A stretch of 60,182 nucleotides of DNA, the filler included, from Sphacelaria rigidula (Eukaryota), in NCBI GenBank assembly GCA_964200075.2. It is 9 parts of 9 records of this genome, joined end to end, with 100 filler letters (N's around TTAATTAATTAA, not from the genome) between each part and the next. Parts side by side here need not be neighbours in the genome. Positions count along the whole stretch, not along the records: positions 53,586 to 60,182 come from CAXNAA020019145.1; 8 more parts are not named here. One strand, written 5' to 3'. The notes under the pieces are model-generated. The model was not told the DNA's origin, did no database searches, and saw only the letters and a program-made list of their open reading frames with translations. Positions 6,600-60,182 of this stretch are shown piece by piece. The translations under genes and the position numbers were made by a program. The first letter of the stretch is position 1; the number at the start of each line of letters is the position of its first letter.

Positions 6600-6699
6600 N
6601 NNNNNNNNNNNNNNNNNNNNNNNNNNNNNNNNNNNNNNNNNNNTTAATTAATTAANNNNNNNNNNNNNNNNNNNNNNNNNNNNNNNNNNNNNNNNNNNN
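6600..6699. other. Artificial contig linker (N-TTAATTAATTAA-N, 100 bp); first of 8
   Basis: Same linker at 6600-6699, 13299-13398, 19997-20096, 26695-26794, 33393-33492, 40091-40190, 46789-46888 and 53486-53585. Contig lengths are 6599, 6599, 6598 (x5), 6597, 6597, i.e. length-sorted. Confidence 0.98.
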
Positions 6700-9329: not shown

Positions 9330-9575
9330 TCATGGGGTGCAGTTTGGTCTATTTTGGTCTCTCCAACACTCAGCTTTGTGCCCGCCCCGGTCGCATGATG
9401 TCGGGTCGTGTTCGGTGTACCTCGTAAGAAGACCATAAACATGTGCGGGGCGTGTCCGGCACATGCAGCGGTTAATATCTCGCACCGAGATTCCCAGGTC
9501 ACTCGGAGATTCGAATCCCGGCCCAACCGTCAGAAGGATTCGAGCTAACCAACTGAGCCACCGGGGCGACCGGCT
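9330..9575 (-). mobile_element. tRNA-derived SINE
   Basis: Head AGCCGGTCGCCCCGGTGGCTCAGTTGGTTAG (Pol III A box) and GGGATTCGAATCTC (B box), no acceptor-stem closure; same head at 45555. Confidence 0.8.
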
Positions 9576-12500
9576 ATAATCATTTATGTTGCCAAGGCCA
9601 TCATGAGAAGCATGAAGCACACGCGAAGTGTTTCGTCAGTGTGGTTCCTTCTGGTGTATTCATTACCCCGAGATACTTGACAACTCGGTGGAAAATCCAA
9701 ACTGTCGTGAGATGATCCATCACTTGATTTTAGAGCAGGGGAATTTTTCGAAGACCCCACGTCTGCACACGCTCTCCGAAGGCACAAATCAAAGCAAACC
9801 CATCCAATATTCGGACACCGTCAAGCAGCTAGGAGATCAGGGGGGCGGCTAACGCCTGTGTTGTACTTCGTACCCCAAAAATGCAACCAATACCCCACAA
9901 GTACAACCAACACCGAAGTATTTTTTCATCTTTTTCATAGCTCGAGAATTCGGCGAATGTGGCGGTACAATGTCACAAGCGAGTGGTGGTTTTCTAGCAC
10001 ATTTTCGATGGTGTTCACTCGTAGCACAAATGCTTTGACAGAAGAACACTCCAGAAGTGCGCGTCAATGACGTTGTTGTGCAGCCGGGGATGTTGGGAAG
10101 ATGACGACCCCCAAAACATATGGATCCATATGAATGCGTTTGAAAATCGGGATCGGTGATTGTGCAGTTTTCGCCCGCTTTCATGGGGTAACTTGATGGG
10201 TTGGGTTCATCTTTGGTAATGGAGATGACACATTCAAATGTTGGTGTGGAGTCTACTGCAGGTAAAAGCTGATTGTGTCACAACCAAGAGGCCGCGTTAT
10301 CCAGGGCCAGCTTTGACGGAACGGTTTAGTCGCAAGCGACTGTGACTACCTGCGAACTACGTCTGGTTGACACGACGTTTCGAGATCTGGGTCCAGGCAC
10401 GCATTACCCTCGTGCTGTGTTGCTTCTTTTGGTAACATGCCGTAAGTACGTCGCGTGCGGAGATAAAACGAGGAATACTGCACACATGTTGTGAGCATGA
10501 TGTGCTCGACAGCATACGGCATTCACAGGAATCACCAGCCACCTGCACAGGTCTCGAAGCTCGCCCTTGCACAGCTGATGACGCCACGCCTGGTTTGACG
10601 GCAATCTACCCTATGTTTCAGGAGCATTGCAGTTTGCGTGTGCTGTTGGGGCAGAAAAAAATGGTGCAGCTTCACCGACGGTTTGTACTGACTGAGCTAC
10701 GGGCTGTAGTAGCCCTACCGCCAAAATACAAGGACGGGAGCGCCTCTGAAATGCTTGTGCAATCGAAAAAAGATTTCAGCCAACCTTCCAAGTAGTCTTC
10801 GAGAAAACAAACTGGGGTACGCCACCAGGAGTTACAATGACACGGAGCAGCAGTCTACTGTGGGGTTGTAGCGCTTGTTGCGTGCGAGGATACAGAGTGT
10901 GCTTGCTGCCTGGGCAGCTACGTTGTGTTCTGTGTTTTGCTGACGGGCAAGGTAGGGTCAAGCTGTAAGGCAAAGTTCGAGGTCTGAAGAATATGTCGTA
11001 CCATGTTTCTGTCCAACTTCCAACGTTTGAACAAAACTGCTGGATAGAAAAAGCTTCTCCAATATCCTCGAAGCTTTTATGGTAGATGCGAGACAGGTGC
11101 TCCACGGTGTGGCGGTCGCATCAATTCGGTTTCAATTTCCTACGGGGGAAATTACTGGAGCATGGCGAAAAGCTCCTACTTTTCGGGGCACAGTTACAAG
11201 AGAAAAGGCACGGCATTTTGTGTAGAGCTGCATCACAGGTGCTAGTAAGCGACGACTGCATACGCAGCAACGGCTATCTTCCACTCCTCCGTACCCCTCG
11301 AGTCTCAGCTGGTACCAGTGTGATTGGGGGCACAAGACACCAGCGACTATCACACACAAACTGGTACGAGCATGGATTCGGCTGCGTCTTTTCGCATAGA
11401 TTCTGTACTGTGTTGTATACACTCGTTGCTTGCTTGACTCACGATCACCTGGTCAAGACACGTCGTTGCTGTCCTGACATCGAGCTAAGGGCCACGTCTA
11501 TCGCTGACAGTGTTGAATAGCTGATGGGCGTACGTATATATGGACTGTACTCTACTGTGCGGTGCCGTGCCGTGCTCTACTTCTTTACTGTACTGTTGTC
11601 GTACGGACAGACAGATCTGGGATGTATGCATAGATTGCATTCTGTTGAGTGCGTGCGTGTTTGAGTTTGATTTCATGCGTCACTCTCTACGTCGACGAGT
11701 CGCCAAAGGAAGGTGTTGGGACCCCAAAACATTTCATAGGCTTCGCCTCTATGCGCCCTCTTGGTTGTGGGGTGCGTTCCAGGCGCGAAAGTACCCCGCA
11801 GTGTTTGCAAAAACAAGCAGGACCTATACACTAACGCTGGAGATGTCGCATAGTGTCCCCATAATAGGCACATGCTGCGAGAGCGACCTGCATATGGAGC
11901 ATGTGGCTAGGGAGTGCGTAAGATTCGTCCCTACATCGTGTGACACTGGCATAGGAGAGCTACAGGAGAAGTACATGACATCGCTAGTAATGAGGACAGA
12001 GGTAGAAGGAAGGGGTAGGCTCCTACTGGACACGTATAAACTTGACTGTTGTGTCAACCAAGTGTCAACCGTACGGTACCACGCCCTTTGAAAGTGTGTA
12101 GTTGTCTCTATGCAGGTCGACTTACAACCTCACCGTGTGTCATAATTGGATCATTCTCGCACTGAAATCGAGTAGGATTTTGCTCGATAGTAAAATCAAG
12201 CTGTTCTACAGGTCGTACAGGTCTGCCTCCTCGCAATCAACCCCTCTTCCTTTCCCTTTTTTGGGCTTGATAGCTTCTGGGGTGCTGTGAGTTTCACAAG
12301 GATTCTGGCTGACCCTTTGGTAGAAGCAATGAGTACTGTACCATGCTGCAGGCGAATTTTCCCAAATTGACGGTTGGGTGCACCATCTCGTCCTTTGGAT
12401 CAACTTGTACGGGGCCATGCCTCATGTGCCGTGTGGGCCGTTTCACCTCTTGCCTCTCTCATGGTTCTGCCGCTCACGGGCAGCTTGTTGCCTTCACAGA

Positions 12501-53485: not shown

Positions 53486-53889
53486 NNNNNNNNNNNNNNN
53501 NNNNNNNNNNNNNNNNNNNNNNNNNNNNNTTAATTAATTAANNNNNNNNNNNNNNNNNNNNNNNNNNNNNNNNNNNNNNNNNNNNAGCGGATGACGACAA
53601 ATTTTTTTGGTGTGGAGAACCACCGAAGAGTGCCGAATAAAAAACGAAATGGACCTTCCATTTTTTTTTTTTCATAGAGGTTAGAGCGTTCTCGTGAAAT
53701 ATGGTCTTTACCATAGTAGAACGCCCCAAACCAGTGGAAAAAATTGAAGAAAAAAATCAGCCTGGCCCACTTTGTTTTGTTGATTATGCCCTAGCCACGC
53801 CCCACACAAAGTTTCAATACACAAACACAACACGTGGGCCGGTAAATGGCCTGCAAAATATTGTTCCGAATTCCTTGACTCTGTTACTA

Positions 53890-54165
53890 AACGGCCGATT
53901 ATGCAGATACTCGGAGTTGGACCCTGAAATTTGGTATGGACAATGAGTAGGGCATAATAAAAGAAACTACTAGCGTACACGAGGGATTTTTTTTTTCATG
54001 AGTTAAGGGCAATACTCAGTTTTCAGATATCGGTAGAATGCCTCTGACTCCTGAAAAAAGAAATCCCTTGTGTGCGCCAGTATTTTTTTTAATTATGCAC
54101 TACTCATGGTCCATACCAAATTTCAGGGTCCAGCTCCAAGTATTGGCCATATAATTGGCCTGCAA
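53890..54165. repeat. Long fold-back inside a CGAGCTGGGC-family element
   Basis: GGACCCTGAAATTTGGTATGGAC / GTCCATACCAAATTTCAGGGTCC; family terminus at about 54187-54200. Confidence 0.85.
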
Positions 54166-54410
54166 ACTGCAGAATCGCTTCTCGGCTGGCCCAGCTCGTA
54201 GCGAATTCAGGACCTCTGCGGTGTTGCGGAGTACTGTGTTGTGCATGGTGCTCCGAATCACCGCAGGCTCCCTGCATTCGCTAGTGCTGCTCCGCCCATG
54301 TGATGAGAGACACTGTCTAGCGCCAGGTATCTGGCTGTGCTGCATGAGCGATGCATTGCTGCTGATGATTTCTTCCAACGTCGGACGACGATGGGTATGA
54401 CTCATGGCAC

Positions 54411-54720
54411 TCGTACTCGTTGGGCTGCTCGTTGGTCGTTTTTGGAGGTCCTCGAGCACTCGAGTAATTACTCGTTGTGCCAAACCCAATGAGGCGAGCA
54501 CTCGAGTCATTGCTTGTTGTGGAAAAACTGGTTGGGCGAGTACTCAATTCATTGCTCGTTGTGGAAGTATTATGAGGGCGAGTACTCGAGTCAATGCTCG
54601 TGGTTAAAATATTATGAGGGCGAGTACTCGAGTCATTGCTCGTTGTGGAAAAATCAACAGGGCGAGTACTCGAGTTATGCCCGTTGTGTTTTCAGAACAC
54701 ATCGACGAGTGCACTCGTGT
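54411..54720. repeat. 42-bp tandem minisatellite with palindromic core
   Basis: CGAGTACTCG-like core at 54453, 54495, 54537, 54579, 54621 and 54663. Confidence 0.92.
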
Positions 54721-55647
54721 CGGCGAGTAATGGCTCGTCCGACGTGTGCAACGTTTTCCCAGGCTCGACAGAGCGGTGCTACGGTAGGGGTGTACATTTT
54801 GCGCAAACGTTTCTCTGGTTCAGGGGCTCTAAACAATTCTAGATGCACAAGAATATGGGTCAGGGCATCCCCGTTTGCGAAGTCATTCGGATATCCCTTG
54901 CACATTGGAATAGCAATCCTGGCGTACTCTCACATATTTCAGACGTCTTGGTTTGAAGTACATAAAGAGCTCCTATCAACTTTAACCCCAGAAAATATGT
55001 GTGCACTCCTACCGTAGCATCGCTCGACAGCTGAGCACGTTCATGTTATTTCATATTCGACTTAGAATGCATTCACGTTTCATCCATGTAGTATGTGCGA
55101 TGCTCACGAGAGTATGTAAGGTCATAAGTTCAGGCGCAAGCACTCTCCCGTGGACCAGCTGCGTCTGTCGTTATTTGCAGTAACAATGATTCACCACATG
55201 CATCAGTAAATTAGCGGGATCTTGACTTCAGAAGAACAACCCCCAACACGATATCATCGTTCACGCGTACAATTAGACTTGCAATACGAGGAGTTACGCT
55301 TTTAATACACACAAAGAAAGGGTCGAGCGAGATTTCGGGGCAAATGCGATGTGACCGAAAATGGAGACACGTCAACATATTCTTGGCAATTGCTCCGTCC
55401 TCGGGCCCTCTCGGCGTATTTTCACGTAGTGAGAACATATGCACATCAACGCCTGCTTCGCTCCAATGGATACAGAGTATGCAGTGAGCCGCATGTATTT
55501 GTCGCACCATTTGCCTATCTCATTTGAGTTTTCACTCCATCCGCTGCGGTAGCGCTCATCATGTTTGTATGCGTACCCCCCCGCGCGCAGTCAGAAGACG
55601 ATTGGACGCGTAAAACGCAATACATCAGTATAATACAGCACACAAAC

Positions 55648-56499
55648 CTTGAAGTAGGCCACGATTTCATCGACCGTTGCGACCAGTTCGTCACGGGAGA
55701 GCGCTACAATGCCGAAGAATAGCTCCAGTGTGATAGATAGGGTGATGACGCGTAGCTCTTGGAGCATGTCGACCTTACCGCACCCTATCGCAGCCGCACC
55801 ATCGCCACCAGTAGCAGCAGCAGTAGCAACCCGCAGTCTCTCTAGCTCTACGCACAGCGCCTGCGTTGCCTTTTTGGCGACATATGTGGCTGCTCGCTCC
55901 AGGCATCTGGAGTTGAGACTGCTTTGAAAGCAGCGGCGCGCTTGTTCCCAGCTCTTACCATCGTTGTTCCATATAACCCCCTGGTTGAGCATGCCCAGAG
56001 CGCGCAATCCCGTCTCGTCCGCAAAGCGTTGCACGTAGTTTGACGAACTGAAAATGTGGTGGGCTAGATCAGGTCGAGCTACAAGTAAGGTGCCACAAGA
56101 GGATGGATTCTTTTTCGTTTGGCAGCTGCTGGCTTCATGCGTGACGTACACCGCATCGCCGTGTCGATGAAATATGTCGCAAGCCACCTTTGGCACGCCG
56201 TCCGTGACAAACAATGTGAGTAGATCGGGCATGTCAACCACAGGGATTTCAGAGTCCTTGGCATTCCCACTTATGGCGGCGGCAGCGATGGCGGCGGTCA
56301 TGGTGCAATAAAACCACAAGCGATACACCGTGCAGAAGGGGGCGCGAGCAACAGCGTGGAGAAAATCAGCACTCGCAAAAAACACGCGATCGCACGCTGC
56401 CGTGTTTATACCGGTTGTTGGGAGAGGTCCACTTTCTCGTAGTAGTGCAGCAAAACCGAAAGCAAGCATAAACACAGAATTGGAAGCACGGCAGATCAC
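55648..56499 (-). CDS. Cytochrome P450, aromatase (CYP19)-like, N-terminal-half exon; downstream exons not found in contig
   Basis: YVQRFADETGLRALGMLNQGVIWNNDGKSWEQARRCF with C-helix WxxxR, and VDMLQELRVITL...EIVAYFK; CAG acceptor, AAG|GTTTGT donor, 852 nt, phase 0-0. Confidence 0.85.
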
Positions 56500-57167
56500 C
56501 TGCTTTCATCTTCGTCCGGTTGACCAACACCCCACAACCTGCGCCACACGAGCATCAGGGTGTCCATCATTGCGCTCGGCTGACAATGAAGACTAGGAGA
56601 GCGTGTACGTGTCGTTGAGATGGTGTGTACGGTGTTCTCGTTGCGTGCGCGACAGTTCCGTGTCCTGATCCCATCACACGATGCCATTTGTAGAGGAGAC
56701 TGTCGCTGTCATTTGTTGACCCCGCAATATAAAGGCGTCCTCAGGTGGGCTGTAGTGAACATTCACTACTATGCAGTAACTTGGCCCCTCTTGGACAGCG
56801 AAAGTAGTCATCCGTAGAATCGGCATCAATTTCACTTAAAGATGATATCAGTGATCCAGATGGGCAACTCGCGGTTCAACGAGTAAAATGTAGCCAGCCA
56901 TCTCTGCCGAACAAACTGAGCGAAAAATAGCCCGAAAGGGCGCGGATGTATAGTCACCCGTGTTTTGTTATTGCTAACGCATCGCAGAGAGGGCTTTACC
57001 CGGCCCTGGCGACAGAAATTATAAATGGTTGGATGTAATTCGTGTTAGTTGAACCTCACACATGCATCCCCATTCCCAACCCGAAGCAGACCAGCAGCCC
57101 TTGGGGAGAGGGTGCGTACAGAGGGTACCGTGGGCAAAAACGCCTGCAGCTCAAATACAAGTCGGAC

Positions 57168-57389
57168 CTGTGCTGCGAACTCTTGGGTCCATGAACCCTG
57201 CGAAGATTTGAGTATGCTGCTACTGCTTGTACTTTTAACCATGAAGTATTGGGCCGAACTCGCGCGACTTCCAGTATTATGTTCCGGCTTCGTTGCCGTA
57301 CACCCCAGCTTCCTAGACCGCGATATTATTGAGCAAATACACACAACACAACCCATCAACAAGTCAGTCCGAAATGGCGGCGCTTCCAT
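57168..57389 (-). CDS. Probable first exon of the P450 gene
   Basis: ATG 57389 (MEAPPFRTDLLMGCVVCICSII), phase-0 donor CAG|GTCCGA compatible with the 56499 exon; donor is weak. Confidence 0.5.
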
Positions 57390-57667
57390 TACTACAGAAA
57401 CACTACACGAGAGGTCTCAAAAGGCGTCCCACACAGGCGCATATTTTGAGCATATGAGATTTCGACGAAACCGAATACTGTTCGGAATCTCGACCATTCG
57501 ATACACATGCAGCCCGTGAAGTGAAACCTCTTTTCGCCAAAGCGTCGCATGGCATCAGGACGCCAACACATCTCCACACCAAACCCTTCTACCTCCTGGC
57601 ACAGGAGGGCCGTCAACACGCAGACAGGCAGAGAGACATACCATACGGACACACTATAAACACAGGA

Positions 57668-57697
57668 CACAGACAGACAGACAGACAGACAGACAGA
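57668..57697. repeat. (CAGA)n microsatellite in the divergent intergenic region
   Basis: About 7 units. Confidence 0.9.
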
Positions 57698-57732
57698 AAA
57701 ACAGTAGCGACGCACGTCGTTGCCGTGTTGTC

Positions 57733-58182
57733 ATGGCTGGCAACAGTACATCTCGAGCCGTGGTATTAGTCGGCCCGAGCTCTGCGGGAAAAACAACGTT
57801 GATGCGCGAGCTGTGCGCATTGCTGCCGGACAGAAGGAAGGGGGTTACTGAAGTTGCTCGCTCTCTGATGAGAGAAGAAGGCATTACGCGAGTACAACTC
57901 GAGGAATGGTTGATGGAGGAGAAACGTGGGGGGGCCAACGCTGGGTTTTCTCGTTTTCAACGGAGAGTGCTTGCGCGGGTGAACCAAATGGAGAAGCTGC
58001 ACTTCAGCTCGAGTGGTGATCGGGACCGGAAGAACCTTGTTGTGTTCGACCGCGGCGGGGTGGATCCCATCGTTTATGCAAAGATCTATGTGTCCTCTGG
58101 TACAGGCCAGGAGCTTGCTGTGACTCAAGACGCACGGGAAGTCTTCGAGCGTTATCGGCGTCAAGACGTGCTGGTGGTGCTG
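57733..58182 (+). CDS. AAA_28 (NadR-like) P-loop NTPase/kinase, first exon
   Basis: VVLVGPSSAGKTTL (Walker A), EVAR, FQRRVL, VVFDRGGVDPIVY; donor CTG|GTGAGT at 58183. Confidence 0.85.
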
Positions 58183-58291
58183 GTGAGTTTTGTCCTGCAC
58201 CTGGTCATCGCCGCTCACGTACGGAATACCGTGCTACTGAGGAACTTCAGAAGGGGGGGAAATGCCCTCAAGTTAGATAGACTGATACGCG

Positions 58292-58380
58292 TAGAGGTAT
58301 CTCAAACTCGAGGTTCACGATATGCTTGACTGTAAATTACGGTGAAATATGCCAGGAACCTCGAGTTTCAGATACCTCTA
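58292..58380. mobile_element. Tiny TA-ended MITE
   Basis: TAGAGGTATCTCAAACTCGAGGTTC / GAACCTCGAGTTTCAGATACCTCTA. Confidence 0.8.
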
Positions 58381-58586
58381 ATAATATTACTATTCACCTT
58401 CATCTTGACTTTAAATCGAATACTTCGTATCATCTCAACCCAACTTATAGATGACCCACCCTGTCCATGAAGGAAGTGAACCACTTGAAGTTGGCCACTA
58501 GGGCGATCGTCTGTTGAACCGGCATCATTATCACTTCGAAATTGAATGCGCGAGCCAGTTGCCCCACCCTGGCCCAACAGACGTTA

Positions 58587-58886
58587 CCAACTGGTCGGGA
58601 AAAATGGTTGAAATTGAAAACATACTCGTTTTAGTCTATGTCGGGGCGATGGATGAAACCACCAACAGATACAGGTGAGCAGTGGTGAGCAGTAGACCCA
58701 GCTTGTCCAGCACGTTTTTTGTTCCAAAATGGGCTGAAAGGCGTCGATTTGAGCTTCGCGTAGGGAATACTCTCCACCCCCTTGCCCGAGTGTTCTCGGT
58801 ATGCCTTAGTCGGGGTTAGGGTTAGGGCCAGGGTTAGGGTTGGCGGCATCTCCATAATGCGTCAACCATTTTTTCCGACCACTTGG
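58587..58886. mobile_element. TA-flanked MITE carrying TTAGGG repeats
   Basis: TA|CCAACTGGTCGGGAAAAATGGTTGA ... TCAACCATTTTTTCCGACCACTTGG|TA; GGGTTAGGGTTAGGGCCAGGGTTAGGGTT inside. Confidence 0.8.
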
Positions 58887-60182
58887 TAAAGAGGCCTCCC
58901 CTGGCCGCAGACGAGGATCAACCCTGTTGACCGCGAAGCACTTTATTCAAGTGCTGAGGCACAACGGAAAAGGCGGAAGTACATATGACCCAGACGGCCC
59001 ACCCTGAGAGTCAGAGGATCGAAGAACATCAGCGGGATGGTCCTGCAATAAAGGGGACGCGGGACCGGGCGGGGCGGCATGGGGCGGGGGGTGATGAGGG
59101 GGTTGACTGCACAAAGCAAGGGGTTAATAATATTGCAGAGTGATGCTGCAGTAGGGGTGCACAATATTTTCTGACGTTCGAATTATTAGGAGCTCTGTAT
59201 CTCATCCAAAGCACCACCTACGGATGTGTGAGGGTATGCCAGGATTACTATCTTTATGTGCTAGAGATATATCTCGAATGATATTGCGAACGGGAACGCC
59301 CGGACCCATATTCTCCTGAGATCTAGAATCGTCAGGAGCCCCTGAACCGGACACGATTTCGCGCAAAAAGGGCACCCCTACCGTAGCATTGCTTGGTGTC
59401 GTACAAGATCTCACGCATTCGTTTTGAGCTTATACGTGACTGAGGCCGCACCCGCGCATCAGTGTGATCGCGTTTCCTGACCCCAAGAGCATATAAACAT
59501 TTTTTTCTGCTTCCAGCGACACTTTGAAGCGACTCCTTAATGCTAGAGATGGTTCAACAGCCCTTCTCCTCGTTCCCTGATCCGGTGGTGAAAACCTGGC
59601 GTGCTCCATCCCGGCTTCGTAGGGATACGAGACCAATGGTGTTATGACTACGCGACATATAATGAATGTCCTGAGCACATTCCTGTCGTAGATTCACTTC
59701 GGTTTTACCCCAACCCCCTTGACCAGCCTTAATTACGACGATCGCATTTTTATGTTTATCTGCCGCAATGCCGTCCCGAGTATTCTTGTGGACGCAGCGG
59801 CTCTTTGCAAGAACCGATGATTTTGCCGCCAAAGCTCTTGTTGGACCACCTACCGACTCACTCACTGACAGAGGCATACTATGTGTATCTGGATTCAATT
59901 GTACCGAAATCAAGGGTTATAACAACTGATGCTTCCCGGGAATACTGTACACCGAAGCCGTCGGAGCGGATCCACTGTTGCCCGAGAGTGGCTCCTCGGG
60001 GTAAAACCTTGACAAAAGAACCCGCCCAGCCGTCTGCTGTCCTGCCTGGCGAAATGATGAAATCAAGGTGTTGGGGATTTTTTGTATCGAAGCTGTGGTT
60101 TTCAAACTACAAACAACAACAAATTGTGCGAATTGAGGTTTAACTCCGAGATGAGGTTCAAGCCTAGAACAGTGCTTTCCCC

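Follow-up and report, generated by a model that had tools for sequence, protein, structure and literature searches.

A probable CYP19-clan cytochrome P450 gene in the alga Sphacelaria rigidula, head-to-head with a NadR-type kinase gene

How does a gene resembling aromatase (CYP19) come to be in the genome of an alga, and what might its product do there? CYP19 is described as chordate-specific in the accessible parts of three articles (PMC5375646, PMC4229089 and PMC7838161), and it is given as absent from four cnidarian genomes in those of a fourth (PMC8110760). In 2024, an amphioxus gene, cyp19-like1, was reported as a 'primitive' type clustering with genes of hydroids and sea lilies (PMC11047327); the accessible part of that article mentions sponge, echinoderm, fungi and algae zero times each. 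In a review of algal P450s (PMC9214053), CYP19 and aromatase do not appear. Our literature search returned nothing on algal or fungal CYP19-clan P450s; the stramenopile P450 survey of Teng et al. 2019 (Planta), which lay outside its reach, may already name the family.

The stretch of S. rigidula DNA analyzed here, referred to as the window, has 60,182 bases and consists of nine pieces of ~6.6 kb, joined by eight linkers (N-runs around TTAATTAATTAA, at 6644, 13343, 20041, 26739, 33437, 40135, 46833 and 53530). Pieces that adjoin in the window may lie apart in the genome. The P450 gene is located on the last piece (53586-60182).

Structure of the P450 gene and its surroundings

The P450 peptide of the original prediction lies in a minus-strand frame that is open from stop to stop at 55591-56505; within it, 55648-56499 translates to 284 residues. 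These residues had been assigned to a single exon. However, splicing 56570-56500 to 56269-55648, with GT..AG ends, gives a product that contains a public protein of 104 aa (P0002) as an exact substring. The 5' 230 nt of the proposed exon (56270-56499) are thus most likely an intron and not coding. They were read as coding because intron 1 is open in frame (Table 1).

Exon 2 ends with a canonical donor (AAG/GTTTGT) directly after ..AYFK, and relatives continue with AWE(Y/F)F where it stops. The two exons together encode the N-terminal ~230 residues, about 45 % of a P450, and all family-invariant residues located in exon 2 are intact. When 15 relatives were compared with the window using tblastn, all of them matched 55648-56247 (E-values 1.9e-25 to 7.6e-13), with alignments beginning at 56247 and running downward. 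No other P450 match to these relatives was found anywhere in the 60 kb, where the exons for the I-helix, K-helix, EXXR and haem loop are absent; the original prediction had likewise found no I-helix and haem-Cys exons. A motif scan of 53586-55660 detected no W..Y/F-type continuation of exon 2. Public runs that contain the stretch (six, from three studies) are labelled with a coded organism name or as 'algae metagenome', and none of them is listed as RNA. Among the contigs from the sequencing runs, none had a joint at either P450 splice site or a loose end toward further exons, and one contig of 244 nt, from a run only guessed to be RNA, spans 55939-56182.

Table 1 Features on the last piece of the window (positions of the whole window)
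Feature	Position	Strand	Description
High-copy repeat	53600..55140		Downstream of the P450 exons; the piece ends 2 kb downstream of exon 2
Minisatellite	54435..54660		Unit about 35-37 bp
Repeat family, copy 1	54771..55027		Opposite orientation to copy 2
P450 intron 2, start	55630..55647	-	Donor GTTTGT
P450 exon 2	55648..56269	-	622 nt; codes for 207 residues ending in ..AYFK (helix A to about helix F of a CYP19-clan P450)
P450 intron 1	56270..56499	-	230 nt, GTGATC...ATAAG, GT..AG ends; open in frame
P450 exon 1	56500..56570	-	ATG 56570-56568; 23 codons + 2 nt; predicted, without obvious membrane anchor
Intergenic region	56571..57732		~1.16 kb between the head-to-head P450 (-) and AAA_28 (+) genes; candidate shared promoter; high-copy repeat at about 56680-56899
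(CAGA)n microsatellite	57662..57706		Just upstream of the AAA_28 start codon
AAA_28 kinase gene, first exon	57733..58182	+	150 codons; PF13521, E-value 2.4e-13; donor GTGAGT at 58183
Repeat family, copy 2	59138..59394		Opposite orientation to copy 1

Repeat families of the last piece recur in pieces 4, 5 and 8 (nine blastn matches at E ≤ 1e-10), and three DNA-type runs cover 54990-57661 evenly, as single-copy sequence. Contamination appears unlikely because of these shared families, the spliceosomal (GT..AG) introns and the single-copy even depth; the argument from shared repeats had already been made in the original prediction. The two copies of one repeat family listed in Table 1 flank the gene pair; the family recurs in pieces 8, 4 and 5, and its coverage in the runs is very high. 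The minisatellite varies in copy number in the contigs of four runs (joints going back 35-37 or 161 bases), and the contigs of all runs break at the microsatellite.

Relationship to aromatase and extent of the family

When the P450 fragment was compared with all PDB chains using phmmer, three distinct sequences were returned at E ≤ 10. Two of them are human CYP19A1 (4kq8, 9.3e-08; 3eqm, 1e-07), aligned over query residues 136-226 and chain residues 93-179. The third was noise (E 1.3), and CYP19A1 was the only P450 among all PDB chains to be matched. The count of 19 identities over 59 gapless columns (32 %; T94-L152) against human CYP19A1, and the 'G.VD.L..LR' and 'I..YF' matches to the human sequence, were reproduced as originally predicted. 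With residue numbers mapped through the alignment to human CYP19A1, exon 2 keeps the equivalents of R115, I133, N135, W141, R145, R192, Y220 and F221, and F134 is changed to W; apart from N135 and Y220, these assignments also agree with those made before. The C-helix W...R haem-propionate motif (W141 and R145 equivalents) is present. It is not CYP19-specific, as W141 occurs in 11 of 13 outgroup P450s and R145 in 10 of 13. The clade-specific residues I133, N135, R192, Y220 and F221 are all found in the window protein (5/5).

A Pfam search with the fragment gave no family at E ≤ 10, PF00067 included. This reflects a divergent N-terminal fragment and not another fold, because all 26 long relatives scanned match PF00067 (E-values 4.6e-30 to 4.9e-96) and 29 of the 30 nearest neighbours in a language-model look-up (Atlas) are P450s. 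Under the nomenclature rule for P450 families, as quoted in the accessible part of PMC4229089, members share at least 40 % identity. The window protein reaches 32 % in its best segment against human CYP19A1 and 34 % against an AAPDT-type protein (P0054), and it therefore lies outside family CYP19 proper.

A HMMER search of 1.84 billion (1.84e9) representative proteins found 85 relatives at E ≤ 1e-3, of which 21 were at ≤ 1e-10; the single relative at ≤ 1e-30 was the same-species fragment P0002. The relatives are ~33-50 % identical over residues ~136-284. A word-index protein search with the fragment, or with residues 76-284, gave no match, the index being too insensitive at 40 % identity. In PDB searches with three full-length relatives, CYP19A1 was the best match each time: P0004 (3.5e-65, 223.9 bits; next solved P450 3.9e-27, 98.2 bits), P0013 (1.5e-104, 353.3 bits; next 8.7e-33, 116.8 bits) and P0005 (1.2e-47, 165.7 bits; next 4.6e-14, 55 bits). 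CYP19A1 was thus ahead of the next solved P450 by 110-240 bits, and the reading of the window protein as CYP19-like, made in the original prediction, is supported.

A word-index search seeded with P0004 returned 72 proteins, of which 58 (family rows) lay at E ≤ 2e-40; no E-value fell between this and 3.8e-24, where ordinary P450s begin. The 58 include proteins of animals (Branchiostoma, two crinoids and the sponge Corticium, named 'aromatase-like'; several bdelloid rotifers; teleost aromatases), Glomeromycotina (Dentiscutata, Gigaspora, Racocetra, Funneliformis and Diversispora), chytrids (Rhizophlyctis and Nowakowskiella), green algae (Mesostigma and the chlorophytes Astrephomene and Edaphochlamys) and a diatom (Seminavis). 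The clan, noted in the original prediction as generally regarded as chordate, is hence not restricted to chordates, and several of these proteins had already been labelled 'aromatase-like' by database annotators. Two rotifer models carry the CYP19-like domain joined to another domain, namely PF00328 (histidine phosphatase) in P0114 (Adineta vaga) and PF00858 in P0112 (Rotaria sordida). Both may be merged neighbouring genes; the phosphatase in P0114 is curious beside the kinase link described below. A metagenome scan for the P450 family gave six loci, five of 1.5-2.7 kb and a long one of 21 kb (L003). L003 contains an apparently intronless CYP19-clan P450 ORF at 9566-11272 (PF00067, 1.1e-60) and comes from a 70-kb eukaryotic metagenome contig with 30 % GC and with F-box, 7TM and septin genes as neighbours.

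Two phylogenetic trees were constructed. The first was a quick tree of 64 rows (IQ-TREE, LG+C20 PMSF), in which a clade of 51 rows (SH-aLRT 99) contained the teleost CYP19s and the window protein, while 12 outgroup P450s and P0080 were outside. The second, more careful tree (LG+G4) had 42 rows, and its 31 ingroup rows were split from the 11 outgroups with UFBoot/SH-aLRT support of 100/99. The outgroups (11-13) were P450s returned by the searches, of plant CYP71/86-type, fungal, bacterial and environmental origin; animal clans 2, 3, 4, mito, 7, 26, 46 and 51 were compared through PDB scores only, outside the trees. The window protein has residues in 36 % of the tree columns, and short fragments and many near-duplicate rows were left out. 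In the second tree, the window protein was sister to a protein of the green alga Mesostigma (97/87) within a loosely supported algal group (84/92), and the sponge, amphioxus-like, crinoid and chordate CYP19 rows formed a separate group (92/96). One chytrid pair nested among the algal rows in both trees. Grouping with another P450 family would have spoken against the original prediction; instead, the protein falls with chordate CYP19 and apart from the other P450s of both trees.

Within the animal group, the amphioxus 'aromatase-like' protein P0092 was of the ancestral type and sister to a crinoid row (99/94), and P0036 (AGPDT, with R in the haem loop) was sister to the vertebrate-type rows (100/99). 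These placements are consistent with two CYP19-clan lineages in early deuterostomes. P0092 and the crinoid rows share W134, G307, T308, G370, K435 and A478 with the algal group; unlike the window protein, which groups with algal rows, the animal 'aromatase-like' members group with chordate CYP19 and are unfused. The amphioxus/crinoid/hydroid lineage, as presented in the accessible part of PMC11047327, appears to be of the same ancestral type and clade, and P0092 is not equated here with its cyp19-like1.

Individual residues were then compared across the clade. I133, N135, R192, Y220, F221, W224 and E302 hardly vary within the ingroup, and they do vary among the 13 outgroup rows. Seven positions separate chordate CYP19 from the rest of the clade: 134 (F versus W), 307 (A versus G), 308 (P versus T), 370 (V versus G), 435 (R versus K), 477 (L versus I/V) and 478 (S versus A). 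Accordingly, the I-helix reads AGTDT in the family and AAPDT in chordate-type rows, and the haem loop reads FG.GPKGC.G and FG.GPR.C.G, respectively; relatives also carry ES/T.R. The B'-C region of the lineage is of the CYP19 type, and its F-helix motif (YF.AW) and I-helix (LEML.AG.DTSSV) are retained. Compared with vertebrate CYP19A1 (3EQM and 4KQ8), the window protein or its relatives share the B'-C region, YF.AW, an I-helix of the form LEML.A..DT.SVS and the equivalents of R115, I133, R192, F221, W224, E302, D309 and T310. They differ in the low identity of the best 59 residues (~32 %), in W for F134 and a predicted exon 1 without obvious anchor in the window protein, and in AGTDT for AAPDT, G370, K435 (GPKGC) and A478 in the relatives. 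Of the aromatase pocket residues F134, P308, V370 and S478, the window protein has W at 134, and the other three are T, G and A in 13 of 13 algal-group relatives. We take the differing pocket positions to be androgen contacts in the aromatase structure 3EQM. Since the non-chordate family differs at them, aromatase activity or sterol aromatisation is not implied; of the originally suggested action on sterols, what stands is that a sterol is one candidate substrate.

Judged from its sequence, the window P450 is a member of the CYP19 clade, a pan-eukaryotic lineage, and a relative of aromatase rather than an aromatase; chordate aromatase would be a derived branch of this ancient eukaryotic lineage. 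The original prediction left a choice between deep ancestry and horizontal gene transfer (HGT). Since named proteins of the family come from animals, fungi, green algae and a diatom, its distribution is more simply explained by deep ancestry followed by many losses, and the idea of a lone stramenopile case needing HGT falls away.

The adjoining kinase gene and its fusions to the P450 lineage

The gene that adjoins the P450 gene on the opposite strand (Table 1) encodes an AAA_28 domain, matching PF13521 at 51.1 bits (E-value 2.4e-13; cutoff 27). Its C-terminal ~50-60 residues, or the exon encoding them, were not found in the window with tblastn. An AF2 model of the exon, in which the domain is truncated, had a pLDDT of 85.6 and a pTM of 0.80. 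In a VIA search, NadR gave the two best fold matches of the model, one at Z 10.5 (115 residues, rmsd 2.7 Å) and one at Z 9.2; thymidine, deoxynucleoside and thymidylate kinases came next, with Z about 8. Foldseek returned the same families weakly (best E-value 0.054), and a PDB sequence search with the exon gave P-loop-only matches. The model fold is thus held in common with the NadR ribosylnicotinamide kinase domain and deoxynucleoside kinases (8x7f, 6gye and 1ot3; Z 10.5, 9.2 and 8.1), whereas identity is 13-23 % and the window gene has no NMN adenylyltransferase or HTH part. On the evidence of the model, the product is predicted to be of the small-molecule P-loop kinase type and not a classical AAA+ machine.

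PF13521 was found not only next to the P450 gene of the window but also fused to P450s of the same lineage. Among the 58 family rows, 16 are fusions, and these come from Glomeromycotina, chytrids, two chlorophytes, a EukProt transcriptome and environmental sequences. Fusions also make up 8 of the 26 long relatives scanned and 14 of 48 ingroup tree rows, with at least six changes of state on the tree. The window AAA_28 matches the fused domains in blastp (P0004, 1.2e-15; P0030, 5.6e-14) and in tblastn, and it carries the Walker A, E..AR and DR...D...Y motifs that are invariant in them. The P450-AAA_28 ('NadR/Ttd14 AAA domain') fusions of Glomeromycotina, chytrids, Astrephomene and Edaphochlamys therefore belong to the same P450 lineage with the same partner, and the window encodes both; they are one polypeptide there, and two divergently transcribed genes here. 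In draft genomes, a fused model can arise when neighbouring genes are merged during annotation, in which case adjacency would still be indicated. One protein (P0017, 729 aa) has the reverse order, with AAA_28 first, two hydrophobic segments and then a CYP19-clan P450 with ATTDT for AGTDT; in the second tree, it falls together with P0011 (100/98), beside the fusion proteins of chlorophytes. In L003, the only long unfused locus examined (21 kb), no AAA_28 was found within 10 kb. Our literature search found no description of P450-AAA_28 fusions or of their recurrent fusion or adjacency.

Possible function and alternative explanations

We consider it likely that the two exons (~230 codons) form the 5' part of a spliced nuclear P450 gene of the ancient CYP19-clan lineage, probably paired functionally with the adjoining NadR-type kinase. 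The P450 would most likely be an ordinary O2- and NADPH-dependent monooxygenase acting on a lipophilic small molecule, and it probably acts jointly with the NadR / deoxynucleoside-kinase-type P-loop kinase encoded head-to-head with it, the two genes presumably sharing a promoter region. The linkage of the two is observed; the chemistry and substrate that we propose are those of an 'oxidise and phosphorylate' pair working on one metabolite, in which the kinase would phosphorylate a hydroxyl of the P450 substrate or product. A sterol is only one candidate substrate, and a nucleoside-type substrate stays possible because the kinase is akin to nucleoside kinases.

Alternatively, the AAA_28 gene could be a chance neighbour, and the P450 could need no partner beyond a standard reductase. 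The pair consists of separate genes, one on each strand, 42 of the 58 family rows have no AAA_28, the animal members are all unfused and the one unfused long locus examined (L003) has no such neighbour. Yet fusions of PF13521 with P450s of this lineage occur in no fewer than four eukaryotic groups and with either domain first, and the window AAA_28 matches the fused domains (E 1e-15). The same rare partner would hardly stand beside the P450 by chance, and we regard this explanation as rather unlikely. It is also improbable that the P450 gene is a remnant with only its 5' exons left, the rest having disappeared or been broken up by the transposable elements that occupy the 2 kb beyond them. The window does lack a C-terminal P450 exon, the downstream region (53600-55140) is a high-copy repeat and the sole public protein for the gene is a 104-aa fragment. 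Against this, both exons are open with canonical splice sites and the family-invariant residues of the exon are all intact. Moreover, just 2 kb of the piece remain beyond exon 2, and in a repeat-rich algal genome an intron of several kb would be plausible.

Two further explanations concern the origin and the activity of the protein. A recent horizontal transfer from an animal or fungus, or a contaminant contig, might be suspected from the patchy distribution of the family and from the chytrid pair among the algal rows. We hold it to be very improbable, since the nearest relatives are just 41-50 % identical and algal or environmental, the P450 gene has GT..AG introns, repeats of the last piece are common to other pieces of the window and the depth of the gene stretch equals that of flanking unique DNA in the DNA-type runs. 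That the alga has a true aromatase making aromatic (oestrogen-like) steroids is scarcely credible, although the equivalents of R115, I133, F221, W224, A306, D309 and T310, which we assume to have roles in androgen binding in structure 3EQM, are conserved in the family. The window protein has W for F134, P308 is T, V370 is G, L372 is V, M374 is L/I, S478 is A and R435 is K family-wide, and the window holds no I-helix exon.

The preferred reading, a CYP19-clan P450 gene probably paired with a kinase gene, adds an algal member to a little-described pan-eukaryotic lineage, together with a gene-pair version of the P450-kinase fusion. With the algal gene and the fungal, green-algal, diatom, sponge and rotifer proteins in one clade, the root of the aromatase lineage would lie far below the animals, and the family supplies a concrete set of ancestral-type enzymes for assay. 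The recurrent fusion or adjacency of the kinase is a functional clue to the role of the lineage before oestrogens, and the gene pair of the window is a candidate source of an unknown oxidised, phosphorylated metabolite in the alga. A broader proposal, which we offer tentatively and as possible rather than probable, is that aromatase is a specialised descendant of an ancient eukaryotic two-part system made of a CYP19-clan monooxygenase and a NadR / nucleoside-kinase-type kinase. This system may persist in fused form in early-diverging fungi and chlorophytes, and as two divergent genes in the window; its product may be an undescribed small molecule that is both oxidised and phosphorylated (a signal derived from a sterol or an isoprenoid, or a modified nucleoside). 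If so, aromatase would not be a chordate invention.
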